Source: Octopus vulgaris (lineage: Eukaryota). From it: 64,000 nucleotides of DNA. Position 1 is the first letter of the stretch, and each line of letters starts with the position of its first letter. Of this stretch, positions 775 to 60,730 are shown in pieces. The position numbers and the translations under genes are program-made. Below the pieces are notes generated by a model. It did no database searches, was not told the DNA's origin, and was given only the letters and a program-made list of their open reading frames with translations. Location of the stretch: NCBI GenBank assembly GCA_951406725.2, contig OX597822.1:103602001-103666000 (forward strand), given 5' to 3'.

Positions 775-1047
775 TAATTAATTATTAATTAATTTTACCA
801 AGTAGTGTTTAGTATGTAAAAAGACCATTTAACGGTATATTTGAAACATTGCGTTATAAAAATAGGGTTCAGTAAAATAATTTACTTTACCACACACCGA
901 ACTTCTTAGAAATAGCAGCCACAAATCTTATTACAGTAGAAATCTATAACAGTAGAAGAAATAGCTAAGATTTTTGGCTGCTTTTTTTTTAAAAAAGTTC
1001 GGTGTGTGGTAAAGTAAATTATTTTACTGAACCCTATTTTTATAACA
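775..1047. repeat. Fold-back insert related to the 596-bp array unit
   Basis: Arms ~853-920 and ~975-1046 are reverse complements. ACCAAGTAG..ATGTAAAA..AGGGTT.AG..TTACCACA.ACCGAA..TAGAAATAGCAG aligns by eye with 36712-36826. Confidence 0.7.
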
Positions 1048-1144
1048 TATATATATATATATATATATATATATATACACACACACATATATATATATAT
1101 ATATATATATATATATATATATATATATATATATATATATCATA

Positions 1145-1440
1145 TATGTATATAATTTAGAGAAAAACCACCATTAAACAACTCAATAAAGAAAGATGTT
1201 ATTCATACCATATAGAAAACATATACTATAAAAAGAAATCTTATATATATATCTGTACATACATATTTGTGACAGACCATGCCTTTTTTTTTGCTGGGTT
1301 CAGCGCGCGCAGACATACATATACACATACAGTCACGATAGACTTCTTTCAGTTTTTTTTCATAGTATATATTTTTTAATTGATGTGAATAACATCTTTC
1401 TTTATTGAATGGTGGGTTTTCTCTAAATTATATGCATATA
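1145..1440. repeat. Fold-back (inverted-repeat) insert next to (TA)n
   Basis: TATAATTTAGAGAAAAACCACCATT..TCAATAAAGAAAGATGTTATTCA (~1151-1205) is mirrored at ~1386-1432. Confidence 0.7.
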
Positions 1441-1540
1441 TTATATATTGTGAAACTTGATTTAAATTTACTAAATTGAATTTTTCCCTGTAAGTTTTGG
1501 AATCATATTCCCTATTATTATTATTATTATTATTATTATT

Positions 1541-2003
1541 GAGTGAGAGAGCAGTTCATGCCATCAAAGTGACACTGGGGTAAAATATACGAAGCCCAAT
1601 ATACCCATCATGACTACCCGTCTGATAAAGGTACACCAGGCACATGCATCACAACCATATGTGCGCGACATGGTGATCTCATATCAAGATAAACAGCACA
1701 TGACCTTGCAGGTGGGGCCCAGTTAGAATTTTCTTCAGGTTGAGTAGCCCATCCCGCTCAAACGGTCCCTGAATAAGGGTTGTTTAAGGATGTTGAAAGA
1801 ACCACCCATGTTCCCAGAGGTGAACTATTCAAACCCCAAAGAATCCCTCTCAACACATGGCTATGATGCTCCCCCACTACTTCTGCTCGTGATCAGAGAT
1901 GCACATATCGTCAGCCACTAAGGGACATGCTCAACTGGTTAAGGTCAAACAACTGACAAGCAAATCTGTGGTATTGAGCAGAATATTTGCTGTAGCCCAT
2001 CTT
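1541..2003. mobile_element. Interspersed element inserted in a (TTA)n tract, family unresolved
   Basis: ~460-bp block of higher complexity, sharply bounded by (TTA)n on both sides; no recognisable coding motif. Confidence 0.4.
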
Positions 2004-2363
2004 TTATTATTATTATTATTATTATTATTATTATTATTATTATCATTATCATTATTATTATTATTATTATTATTATCATTATTATTATTATTATTGTTGT
2101 TGTTGTTGTTGTTGTTATATATATATGTGTGTGTGTGTGTGGTTGTTTGTTCTGACTCATATGCACGTATATATATAAAGACACTTTCATACATAGATAC
2201 ATACATATATTTAACCTAGTGCAGTGTTTGTTTAATAAGAGGTAGACATTTATCATGTGAATTGAAAAGTTAGTTCTGAAAAAACTCTCTGGATGGTAGG
2301 CGATCCTTTCTAAGCACAACAAGATCACCTTTGATAATATAGTCGTCGAGGCATAATATGAAA

Positions 2364-2467
2364 CCATTTTTTTCCTTTTTTTTTGCTATTTTTTGGCTAT
2401 AACTCTCTAAAAATGCTTTATAGTTATTTCCCTTACAAACCTGAGCAACGCCGGGCGATACTGCTAG
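2364..2467 (+). mobile_element. Non-autonomous Helitron 3' fragment
   Basis: Ends CCTGAGCAACGCCGGGCGATACTGCTAG|T (subterminal hairpin plus CTAG), the same as the full copies. Confidence 0.75.
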
Positions 2468-2840
2468 TGTTAGATATAATGTATGTATTCATATTTGATG
2501 AGCAGTAAATCACTAAATCATCCATAACTTTTGTATTATCCTCTCAAATTACACCAAAATCTCAAGCAATAACAGATAATTATTTATTGTCTGTGAAAAT
2601 TTTAGAATATAAAACAACTTTGATAAAAAATTATATCTACTTTTCTGACGAAAACAATGCCGTTCTGAACATTTTGGCCGCCACTGTATATATACATAAA
2701 TATATATATAATTATATATAAAAAATAGAAAAGAGTGAAAAAACTACAGAAGGCTTGTTTTATAAGGTTAAAGAGTATATTTAAGTCGTTATGTTAGAAA
2801 AATGTTATAAAATTTTGTGCATGGTAACATAGTTTTTGGA

Positions 2841-2883
2841 GAAATACATGCATGTTTCTGGGTCTTGCCCATCATCAGTCTAG
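2841..2883 (-). ncRNA. Type I hammerhead ribozyme (PLE-type, weak stem I)
   Basis: Minus strand reads AGA CTGATGA TGGG-CAAGA-CCCA GAAA CATGCATG TA TTT: full core, 4-bp stem II, palindromic stem III. Confidence 0.7.
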
Positions 2884-2994
2884 AGTAGCATATATATATA
2901 TATATATATATATATATATATACACTAGCATATATATATTCACTAGCATATATATATATATATATATATATATATATATATATATATATATCTA

Positions 2995-57954: not shown

Positions 57955-58535
57955 ATCGATGTCAACGTCATCGTCAACGTCACTGTCACCATCGCCATCA
58001 CCACCACCACCACCACCAACACCACCAACACCACAAACACTAACACAATTGTCATCATCAGCATCATCAGCAGCAGCAGCAGCATCACCGTCGTCGTTTA
58101 CCGCTTCCACTTCCTCCCATTTTTTTCTCTTCCGCCTCCTTGTCATCATCATCGTCATTGTCCTCCTCCTCCTCCTCCTTCTCGCCCCCTCCTCCTTCTC
58201 ACCCCCTCCTCCTTCTCACCCCCTCCTCCTCCTCCATCTTCTTGTTCTTGTTCTTGTTCTTGTTCTTGTTCTTCTTGTTCTTCTTGTTCTTGTTCTTCAT
58301 ATCTTCTTCTTCTCCTCCTCCTCATCATCATTGTTGTTTTCGTCGTCATCTTTGTCGTCGTCTTCGTCGTCCCCGTCCTCTTCTTTCTCCACCACCACCA
58401 CCACCATCACCACCACCACATCACCACCACCGCCACCGCCGCACCACCACCACCACCACCACCACCACCACCACCACCATGATGATGATGATGATGATCA
58501 TCATCATCATCATCATCATCTTCATCATCCACCAC
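57955..58535. repeat. Mosaic trinucleotide low-complexity tract (CAC/CAT/CCT/CTT/GAT)
   Basis: Directly visible; open in several frames only because it lacks stop codons. Confidence 0.9.
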
Positions 58536-58843
58536 TGTTTCTTGTACTGTTGCGCAGAGTCCCCGAATTTGTAAGGCAAGAGTGGTTCCTATAATGTCCT
58601 CCCCTGACGCTTCCCAGCCTCATCTACTTTGCCGACGTCAGAGAAATTAAAGCAAAGTCAACACTAATTGGCGCCTAATCTGCTTTCATTTCTCCAGACA
58701 GCCCAAAATATGCTTTTATTAGCTTTTATTTGTCTTGCGTGGACCTGTCAACACAGACGCGATTAACCACTAAGTTCGGGTGCGCAACCGATTCTTACAA
58801 TGCAAAGCGGTTCATTAGTCAAGTTGTTACTCGTTTCCAGCAT

Positions 58844-59398
58844 ACTCTCTTTTACTCTTTTACTCTTTTACTTGTTTCAGTCATTTGACTGTGGCCATGC
58901 TGGAGCACCGCCTTTTTTTAGTCGAGCAAATCGATCCCAGGACTTATTCTTTGTAAGCCTAGTACTTACTTATTATATTGGTATCTTTTACCGAACCGCT
59001 AAGTTACGGGGACGTAAACACACCTGCATTGGTTGTCAAGGGATGTGGGGAGGACAAACACAGGCACGCAAAAGTATACACGCATACATATATATATATA
59101 TATATATGTATGTATGTATGTATGCATACATACATACATACATACATACACACACACACACACACACACACACACACACACACATATATATATATATATA
59201 TATATATATATATATATATATACACACACACAAACATATATACACACACACACACACATATATATATATACATATATACGACAGGCTTCTATCAGTTTCC
59301 GTCTACCAAATCCACTCACAAAGCTTTGGTCGGCCCGAGGCTATAGTTGAAGACACTTGCCCACGGTGCCACGCAGTGGGACTGAACCCGGAACCATG
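58844..59398 (-). mobile_element. SINE family A (head truncated)
   Basis: Matches the family A body and tail. Confidence 0.82.
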
Positions 59399-59474
59399 TA
59401 TGCGTGTGTAAATGAATGTACATGTATCTATGTACGCATGTATGAATGCATGCATGTATGCTATGCATGAGCAT

Positions 59475-59947
59475 ACACACACACACACACACACAAACAC
59501 ACACAAACACAAACACACACACAAACACACACACACACAAACACACACACAAACACACACACACACACACACACACACACACACACACACACACACACAC
59601 ACAAACACACACACACACAAACACACAAACACACACACACACACACACACACACACACACACACACACACACACACACACACACACAAACACACACACAC
59701 ACAGACACACACACAAACACACACACACACACAAACACACACACACACACACAAACACACACACACACAAACACACACAAACACACACACACACACACAC
59801 ACACACACACACACACACACACAAACACACACACACACACAAACACACACACACACAAACACACACAAACACACACACACACACAAACACACACAAACAC
59901 ACACACACACAAACACACACACACACAAACACACACACACACACACA
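59475..59947. repeat. (CA)n tract punctuated by CAAA, ~470 bp
   Basis: Directly visible. Confidence 0.97.
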
Positions 59948-59984
59948 TACTGGATACTTCTTTTTTTAACTTTAAAAGTTATTT

Positions 59985-60355
59985 CTGGTAAGAAGTTTGC
60001 TTCTTAAACACACGGTTCCAGGTTCAGTCCCACTGCTTGGCGCCTTGCGCAAGTGTCTTCTACAATAGCCTCGAGCAGACCAAAGCCTTGCGAGTGGATT
60101 TGGTAGACGGAAGCTGAAAGAAGCCCGTCATATATATATATATGTGTGTGTGTGTTGTATGTGTGCGTTTGTTTCTGTGTTCGTCCCTCACCATCGCTTG
60201 ACAACCGGTGTTGGTGTGTTTATGTCCACGTAACTTATCGGTTCGGCAAAAAGAAAATGAATTAGTCGATTCAATTCGCTAGAAATAATTCTTCAAGGCG
60301 GTGCCCGTGCGTAGCTGCAGTCTAATGACTGAAACAAGTAAAAGAATAAGAGAAT
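59985..60355 (+). mobile_element. SINE family A, diverged
   Basis: Body and tail match family A. Confidence 0.75.
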
Positions 60356-60411
60356 AAAGGAATATATATGTATACCACCCCCCCACATATATACATATAT
60401 ATATATATATA

Positions 60412-60730
60412 CGCATATATGGGTACAGGACGTCACCAACAGTAAACAACATGAAAAACGAAAACAAATGACTTCAATACGCAAAGAGAGAAACGAATGG
60501 TAAACAGGAAAAGTATCATGAAGAACGACCCTTCATCAGTTGTCAGATGTCTATCTACCCATAATGCTCGAAATGAGGAGTAGATAGACAACCGACAACT
60601 GATGAAGGGTCGTTCTTTATGATACTTGTCCTGATTTCCATTCGTTTCTCTCGTTTGCGTATTGAACTCATTTGTTTTCGTATTTCATGTTGTTTACTGT
60701 TGGTGATGTCCTGTACCCATATATGCATAT
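60412..60730. repeat. Fold-back insert of PLE-type family 2
   Basis: ~60412-60558 is mirrored by ~60580-60730; flanked by (TA)n. Confidence 0.85.

Follow-up and report, generated by a model that had tools for sequence, protein, structure and literature searches.

Head-to-head fold-backs in (TA)n tracts of an Octopus vulgaris locus: insertions of Penelope-like elements and retrozymes probably shaped by twin priming

Introduction

Why should so many sequences stand as head-to-head inverted repeats inside (TA)n microsatellites of one genome? The question is raised by a stretch of 64,000 nucleotides (nt) from Octopus vulgaris (NCBI GenBank assembly GCA_951406725.2, contig OX597822.1, positions 103,602,001 to 103,666,000 of the forward strand), which is called the window below and in which positions are counted from its first letter. 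An initial annotation, made from the letters alone, described eleven such fold-backs and attributed them to a (TA)n-targeted integration mechanism shared by families of Penelope-like elements (PLEs), which would make microsatellites a safe-harbour niche for them. The analysis presented here indicates that most of the fold-backs are very likely PLEs or retrozymes inserted in (TA)n, whose head-to-head shape probably arose by twin priming, that is, by the joining of two complementary DNAs (cDNAs) at their 3' ends.

Fold-backs and their association with TA tracts

Self-comparison of the window, with simple repeats masked, recovered inverted repeats or an inverted junction at all 11 of the places that had been named. 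Their limits are 854-1045, 1155-1428, 6949-7584, 11138-12307 (98.7%), 12543-12840, 20534-20698 (99.4%), 29210-29354, 32156-32300, 32756-33104, the junction at 36700 and 60414-60725. The arms had thus been located by the initial annotation, whose limits left out a one-sided tail of 32-90 nt at eight places. The 3' ends of every family are fixed at two positions, called the short end and, 30-90 nt further on, the tail end; the arms meet at pivots on the 5' side that vary, with 0-4 nt of microhomology, and TA stands at the outer ends. The fold-backs, to which no strand is assigned, are as follows.

775..1046, decayed head-to-head fold-back (854-1045) with a 79-nt tail (775-853); short end abutting TA at 1047; hammerhead absent from this copy
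1145..1511, family H fold-back with a tail of about 84 nt; the arms stop short of the family hammerhead (CGTACG), which is about 215 nt upstream
6935..7597, old fold-back with arms 6949-7049 and 7484-7584; decayed hammerhead 3' half (CAATTG); like family G by motif only
11138..12397, family B (Hydra-type PLE) fold-back, 98.7%, tail 12308-12397, TA at both ends; hammerheads 11590-11658 (minus) and 11785-11853 (plus), stem III TGGCCA
12543..12920, family G fold-back, tail 12841-12920, TA at both ends; one whole hammerhead, core 12712 (minus), stem III CACGTG
20534..20769, family A (Hydra-type PLE) minimal fold-back; short end 20534, pivot 20617, tail 20699-20769, flanking TA of 47 and 36 nt; hammerhead cores 20600 (minus) and 20632 (plus), stem III CTCAGAG
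29210..29400, truncated fold-back of a 360-base-pair (bp) retrozyme (family F) with a 46-nt tail; hammerhead not reached
32067..32300, family H fold-back, tail of about 89 nt abutting TA at 32066
32724..33104, family E fold-back, 95%, 32-nt tail; U3-A8-type hammerhead core with CATG in each arm, weak stem I
36700..40284, array of a 596-bp retrozyme (family C), TA at both ends; six hammerheads, stem III CGTGCG; the inverted 469-nt arm stops at the tail end and about 5.2 direct units stop at the short end
60412..60726, family D fold-back, old family, fixed 3' end at TA; 5' half core only

The listed units occupy about 23% of the window (rough limits). They had been described as unrelated sequences, which does not apply to 1145 and 32156 (one family, 84%) nor to 29210 and the copy at 13160-13604 (one family); the units group into about eight families and not eleven.

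The association with TA was measured by counting as abutment any (TA)5 or longer tract at most 6 nt from a fold-back, with 1000 random relocations as the null. The window holds 141 TA tracts of at least 10 nt, and 8 of its 14 fold-backs abut TA (null mean 0.21, highest 3). In an unselected sample of the 2.8-Gb genome made of 60 stretches of 10 kb (600 kb), abutment was found for 17 of 47 fold-backs (null 0.55, highest 4). None of the 1000 relocations equalled either observed value. The remaining 30 of the 47 have no TA next to them, so some inverted repeats in the genome must be of another kind.

These 30 may include miniature inverted-repeat transposable elements (MITEs), and short TA-flanked hairpins do resemble the MITEs of the Tc1/mariner group. 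As an account of the fold-backs in general, a derivation from MITEs or from other DNA transposons that target TA and carry fixed terminal inverted repeats is nonetheless very improbable. Fixed terminal inverted repeats with a fixed internal length were not found, the tail is one-sided, the arms extend into reverse transcriptase (RT)-endonuclease open reading frames (ORFs) or into tandem retrozyme units, and the pivots range from -1 to beyond -3400, which rules MITEs out. Variable pivots or tails refute this origin for families A, B, C, E, F, G and H; family D and the fold-backs at 775 and 6935 were examined less. That the palindromes were created by sequencing or assembly at TA tracts, which are error-prone, deserves even less credence and is close to negligible. 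Two of them are near-perfect (98.7% and 99.4%), as such an artefact would be, but others are decayed (71-90%), tails are one-sided and hundreds of pivots are specific to a family. The same pivots also recur as opposite-strand joints in contigs of two public runs (X8 and X19), which further disfavours an assembly artefact.

Insertion anatomy and the origin of the head-to-head shape

Complete insertions of families A, B, C and F combine a short end with a tail end in 62 of 64 cases. For family A, TA of at least 6 nt stands next to 62/64 short ends and 52/58 tail ends. The targeting of (TA)n across families, which the initial annotation had proposed, is therefore borne out by both the enrichment of fold-backs and the TA next to insertion ends, and it had already been published: inverted 5'-truncated copies, one-sided tails and (TA)n targets (PMC8557442), inverted pseudo-long terminal repeats (pLTRs), a tail, 8-10-bp duplications and palindromes at junctions (PMC3846280) and variable inverted repeats (PMC2377424) have all been reported. 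Two results weigh against a uniform anatomy. The combination short plus short was scored in the other 2/64 insertions, one of which looks like a missed pattern, and the tail patterns of families G and H are adjacent to TA in 3/8 and 1/4 cases, presumably owing to end offsets.

Pivots were studied in 52 minimal family A fold-backs, 38 of which have readable short and tail ends; L050 was left out of the arm-length count, and L228 and L229 share a flank and may be a single event. In 17 of the 38 it was the short arm that extended further 5', in 12 it was the tail arm, and the remaining 9 had arms of equal reach. CTAG forms the centre of eight pivots, which are palindromes lacking a loop. Two subfamilies share identical pivots, which are found in both polarities; the arms agree in subfamily wherever both are readable, and fold-backs therefore arise anew each time.

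Two cDNAs joined at their 3' ends fit these data better than one, because a single folded-back cDNA leaves the tail arm longer and needs a loop. Twin priming is thus a likely source of the head-to-head shape. Under the proposed mechanism, the GIY-YIG endonuclease would make two nicks in a TA tract, one per strand and separated by about 14-18 bp. The two 3' ends would each start cDNA synthesis on the RNA of the element, at the short site in one case and at the tail site in the other, with a TA-like match of 1-4 nt assisting. The 3' ends of the two cDNAs would then anneal through microhomology, and host repair would fill in to give a head-to-head pair with the tail on one side. In the minimal palindromes of family A, both cDNAs would have run off a fixed RNA 5' end located 13 nt before stem I of the hammerhead. 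The PAc protein of the Anolis Poseidon element was observed in vitro to use two RT start sites that bound the tail and to cut and extend both strands, and it is predicted to form a dimer; uncleaved RNA was its main substrate (PMC11167929). A literature search that covered few subscription journals returned no paper stating twin priming for PLEs.

Self-priming has been proposed before (PMC3846280). In such a scheme a palindrome lets a single cDNA (or an antisense template) pair with itself, and the second arm is then cut back to the short end by the endonuclease; the tail has been attributed to resolution by the endonuclease (PMC8557442). Self-priming would account for the many short palindromes among the pivots and for the correlation of arm lengths, and a 5-nt loop would let a CTAGAA end fold onto the T run. 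The 17 of 38 cases in which the short arm is longer run against it, as do the loop-less CTAG pivots and those with a 1-nt overlap, which are impossible within one strand, and the two RT start sites that bound the tail in vitro (PMC11167929). Self-priming is accordingly regarded as improbable. Cleavage by the hammerhead was also considered as the cause of the pivots and rejected: of the 29 pivots close to the cleavage site, about one could coincide with it.

Some loci depart from the common anatomy. At L050 (C1:70897600-70900000) both family A arms start at stem I right after TA tracts, with 1.2 kb between them, which perhaps reflects a later insertion at the pivot. The pivots of L225, L231 and L233 carry short templated insertions, which we take to resemble polymerase-theta end joining.

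A 5' wall in family A

Genome-wide, 619 family A insertions have both arms ending no more than 30 nt apart, just before the ribozyme. Of 104 arms, a single one extends to 14 nt upstream of stem I and the rest stop earlier; under uniform stops, about 60% of loci would be expected to go further. At L040, just outside the 104-arm set, the arms reach 14 and 15. Among longer-spaced insertions, an arm at this wall is paired with a long arm in 1 of 15 (L045), against about 74% if arms were independent; 15 of the 19 long pairs listed were covered. The best explanation of the wall is a fixed 5' end of the RNA, either a start site or a nuclease stop, and we hold this to be about evenly balanced between true and false. 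In Drosophila Penelope, the start site lies within the pLTR (PMC2377424). Two points count against a fixed end: it was not observed as such in the material, which consists of assembled contigs, and the wall falls where an extended helix I is predicted to have its base, close to an acceptor-like AG.

The second of these points leads to a rival in which reverse transcription of a long RNA is stopped by a roadblock, which could be splicing factors on the AG at -7, a small hairpin at -15 or an extended helix I bound by protein. The predicted extended helix I starts at about -13, a 7-bp hairpin ends at -15 in one subfamily, and the intron of Drosophila Penelope ends at helix I (PMC4209133). Yet a leaky block predicts mixed short and long pairs at the frequency of about 74%, which is far from the one in 15 seen. 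Neither the retrozymes, whose pivots (two families) are scattered over the unit though hammerheads are present, nor family B, with about 10 of 16 copies ending in a T-rich stretch that lies 100-110 nt upstream of the core, behave as a roadblock would predict. In three RNA-like runs contigs span the family A ORF, with a possible contribution of DNA, and they contain no splice joint, a weak argument against the roadblock. A roadblock is possible on this evidence, though we doubt it. Two adapter-bearing loose contig ends in one RNA-like run were set aside, as they are single contigs.

A further reading of the minimal palindromes goes beyond the fixed RNA end and is tentative: they would be twin strong-stop cDNAs, every insertion would duplicate 14-18 bp of TA, and many PLE families would in this way build their own targets. 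If so, a dimeric PLE enzyme would start two cDNAs on a capped mRNA, in its 5' pLTR copy, and both cDNAs would run off the start site and anneal, so that each minimal insert would carry the start site in both directions.

Element families

The PLE origin suggested by the initial annotation is upheld by the ties of families A and B to Hydra-type ORFs and of family E to Neptune-like endonuclease pieces, and most units almost certainly originate from PLEs or retrozymes. Copies in the genome, counted as exact or pattern matches, belong to about eight PLE families, including autonomous Hydra- and Neptune-type elements and the 360- and 596-bp retrozymes. The structure is that of endonuclease-bearing (EN+) PLEs: RT followed by a C-terminal GIY-YIG in one ORF, partial tandems or pLTRs (tandems in L031 and L032) with an inverted 5'-truncated copy and a one-sided tail, and, by motif only, a type I hammerhead with palindromic helix III in the pLTR. 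The (TA)n preference of Hydra elements is present in families A and B.

The 32-nt hammerhead of family A has 3530 exact copies in the genome, with minus/plus spacings of 40 to 5418 nt. Long copies consist of a 3352-bp tandem unit with a 727-amino acid (aa) ORF (P0001), and the fold-back at 20534 is the 3' end of this element. P0001 contains the motifs RWK, DKT, YRDD, CxxC, CxH and YTGAS. The Hydra clade is marked by RWK, DKT, and CxxC and CxH around the catalytic E and N, with CCHH absent (PMC8557442). P0001 has RWK, DKT, CxxC and CxH and lacks CCHH, and on this match family A was assigned to the Hydra type; its protein also resembles Hydra-1_Obim of the supplement in a comparison by eye (PMC8557442). 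Several observations weigh against the assignment, which is putative and derives from motifs and likeness by eye rather than a tree. P0001 matched no Pfam family at E 0.1, but 1765 homologs were found, one of which carries PF01541. The Hydra linker CxCX5C reads CNFKNESSC in P0001, with F replacing the second C, while it is intact in the window fragment at 47074 and in the family B locus L069. In addition, the unit of 3.35 kb exceeds the size of under 3 kb given for Hydra (PMC8557442).

Family B (63 exact genome matches) joins pieces of a Hydra-type ORF with RWR and DKT. In 3 of 15 loci of family E (30 matches), pieces of a Neptune-like endonuclease lie upstream (tblastn, 33-39%). Families F (2859 matches) and C (518) are non-LTR retrozymes, because they form tandem units of 360 and 596 bp, each with one type I hammerhead and no ORF. 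Families G (73) and H (210) have a hammerhead upstream and both types of end. The PLE origin is less well anchored for the other units, since no ORF link was found for family G, the one for family H is weak (E 3e-5) and none was made for family D, 775 or 6935. The fold-back at 775 is 70-81% like the unselected loci L141 and L150, which carry hammerheads. Family D (632 matches) ends at TA with a half core only and may be a remnant of Naiad, a clade with an N-terminal GIY-YIG, a C-terminal RT, a half-core hammerhead and TA targets. The half core and TA ends agree with Naiad, no ORF was found upstream, and the family had no exact string match in the available supplement of PMC8557442. In the family D relatives at 27950-28140, 33880-34070, 60412-60726 and 62990-63180, the GAAA..TA half lies upstream of the CTGATGA half, and stem II could pair in type II order while stem I does not.

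The remaining PLE and retrozyme copies of the window are the following.

2640..2889, minus strand, solo PLE-type fragment beside a TA tract, not a fold-back; hammerhead core 2878, stem III CATGCATG, weak stem I
13160..13604 (limits approximate), minus strand, older relative of the 360-bp retrozyme; hammerhead core 13315, stem III CTATAG
14943..18995, minus strand, Neptune-type PLE between TA tracts; RT and GIY-YIG frame 15655-17982, hammerhead 15121-15155 (GTAC)
47074..48829, plus strand, Hydra-type endonuclease fragment (47074-47706) and 3' end with a hammerhead at 48483

The frame 15655-17982 is open over 775 aa and matches RVT_1 (E 2e-6) and GIY-YIG (E 3e-5) in Pfam. It has the Neptune features DKG, GLKF and a CX2-5CxxC linker before GIY-YIG; the Neptune assignments of this ORF and of family E are putative, being drawn from motifs and tblastn matches and not from a tree. 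A second frame upstream, from 17889 (overlap 17889-17982), is cut by TA at 18996, and no inverted arm was seen at this copy. The element looks young, with pieces matching at 99-100% at L125, L083 and L084. Beside it, between TA tracts, lies an element at 14467-14874 with a TC start and an end with a GC hairpin and CTAG, which we take to be Helitron-like; a short non-TA word at 14430 and 19019 brackets this element together with the Neptune one. At 47074..48829, a second 3' end (48725-48829, minus strand), 96% identical, faces the first across a TA tract, and this tail-to-tail pair departs from the head-to-head rule.

Hammerheads and stem III

The initial annotation held that many fold-backs contain hammerheads; whole motifs are present in 5 of the 11. 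There are two at 11138, one at 12543, two at 20534 (where stem II has an A-A mismatch at its base) and six in the array at 36700; at 32756, two cores of the U3-A8 type with a weak stem I were recognized by eye. The claim fails for the other six: no hammerhead motif was found in the copies at 775, 1145, 29210 and 32156, and the motif is incomplete at 6935 (decayed 3' half) and 60412 (5' half core only). A structural scan for type I hammerheads gave 14 matches in the window, where a shuffle gives 0.1, and 26 matches in the 600 kb of unselected genome, where a shuffle gives 0-3. Among 150 of 310 Rfam rows, the only matches were to microRNA hairpins, with no hammerhead.

All seven stem III words that had been listed are present in the window, two of them, CATGCATG (2878) and GTAC (15155), outside fold-backs. 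Self-complementary loops of at least 4 nt were found in 11/16 real and 4/15 shuffled matches (Fisher p 0.03). In the 360-bp family, stem III in the first 100 of 1756 matches reads CCATGG (78), CCTAGG (15), CTCGAG (4), CTCGGG (2) or CCTTGG (1), and CTATAG in the older window copy. Among 100 of the 518 matches of the 596-bp family, all have CGTACG or CGTGCG; in a dimer, CGTGCG pairs through G-U. The double changes are true covariation, although only two or three independent events. In all window cases with a stem III long enough to close a loop, the predicted energy is +1.7 to +6.0 kcal/mol for the monomer hairpin and -4.6 to -13.3 kcal/mol for the self-duplex, and monomer folds of hammerhead regions are no better than shuffles (z 0.68 to -1.63). 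The selection for dimeric ribozymes that had been suggested is thus supported by within-family covariation and predicted duplex energies, and the idea dates from 2014 (PMC4209133). The palindromic stem III would be kept since the ribozyme would act as a dimer in tandem RNA, and the cleaved RNA would not be the main template.

Possible growth of TA tracts

The expansion of TA tracts by insertion, the last part of the initial proposal, is only hinted at. An interruption in the flank is repeated on both sides in 3 of 62 pairs (14, 15 and 18 nt; null 0.11), and L064 has, by eye, a 16-nt flank duplication with one mismatch. If 14-18 bp are duplicated, 7-9 TA units are gained per insertion. Against growth stand eight informative flanks that have an interruption and no duplication, a test that was tuned after the cases had been seen, and the lengths of the tracts themselves. 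Summed TA flanks have a median of 67 nt, compared with 29 for a length-weighted background and 56 under length-squared weighting, so a strong preference for long tracts would also explain them without expansion. Modest growth through target duplication is, in our estimate, an even call. For the empty allele of L232, no bridging contig was found in four runs.

Other repeats in the window

A common family with a minimal hammerhead core CTGTNGA and a loop-less CG stem III occurs at 8900-8920, 24168-24298 and 36246-36371; it is often truncated against TA, in tracts shared with other insertions, and has many copies at unselected loci. Abundant repeats resembling short interspersed nuclear elements, some in inverted pairs and also TA-flanked, lie at 13778-14083, 14097-14409, 22050-23200, 45461-45889 and 49954-50466. 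Short frames resembling remnants of long interspersed nuclear elements or RT were noted at 9146-9607 (minus), 28430-28700 (plus) and 51172-51423 (minus); the first two had no Pfam match and the third has a weak tblastn match.

Significance and comparison with known systems

The head-to-head shape described here differs from the twin priming of L1, in which one internal primer on the same RNA generates a 5' inversion and not two outward 3' ends. Inverted arms, the tail, TA targeting and the palindromic helix III have all been published, and the finding as first written is not new because the architecture is ordinary PLE biology. What is added is the polarity of the junctions, the 5' wall with its 619 minimal fold-backs and the 14-18-bp duplications suggested by four flanks. 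The value of the locus and its genome lies in a large, young and natural data set on how PLE tandem and inverted structures form and on microsatellite preference, the origin of both having been named an open question (PMC8557442). The short-plus-tail rule, the junction polarity and the 5' wall provide sharp predictions for the existing in vitro system. Minimal fold-backs also mimic MITEs and microRNA hairpins, which is relevant to annotation.

The closest relatives are the Hydra-clade EN+ PLEs (Craig et al., 2021; PMC8557442), (TA)n-targeting families of which, together with Naiad families, are listed for octopuses in the supplement. They share the single ORF, RWK, DKT, CxxC, CxH, a canonical-type hammerhead, (TA)n targets, tandem and inverted insertions and the one-sided tail, and a Hydra sequence of the supplement ends, by eye, with a near-identical hammerhead frame and the stem III CTCGGAG. 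Tails measure 30-40 nt there and 71-90 nt here, and a sharp 5' wall with minimal palindromes was not found described for Hydra in the available parts of the article. Neptune-type PLEs of the same study are like the window ORF in DKG, the CX2-5CxxC linker, the upstream frame and TA flanks; the window copy differs in having no inverted arm and an upstream frame cut by the TA tract.

The minimal PLE hammerheads (Cervera & De la Pena, 2014; PMC4209133) agree in the type I fold, the extra base 9.1, the palindromic helix III, the dimer proposal, the U3-A8 variant and opposite-strand pairs 100-700 bp apart. In contrast, several families here have very long stem II inserts (50-77 nt), and family A is without the G10.1-C11.1 pair. 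Poseidon PAc of Anolis (Frangieh et al., 2024; PMC11167929) is comparable in its two RT start sites, both-strand cutting and AT-rich targets, and no link to head-to-head insertions is drawn in the available text. Non-LTR retrozymes, for which a PLE origin has been proposed, are likewise tandem units with one type I hammerhead per unit and no ORF (PMC7229834; bioRxiv 10.64898/2026.07.22.740005); in the parts available, the word "inverted" is absent from the first of these sources and is mentioned once in the second. The retrozymes of this genome, in contrast, show the full insertion signature of PLEs, with head-to-head arrays, short and tail ends and TA targets.

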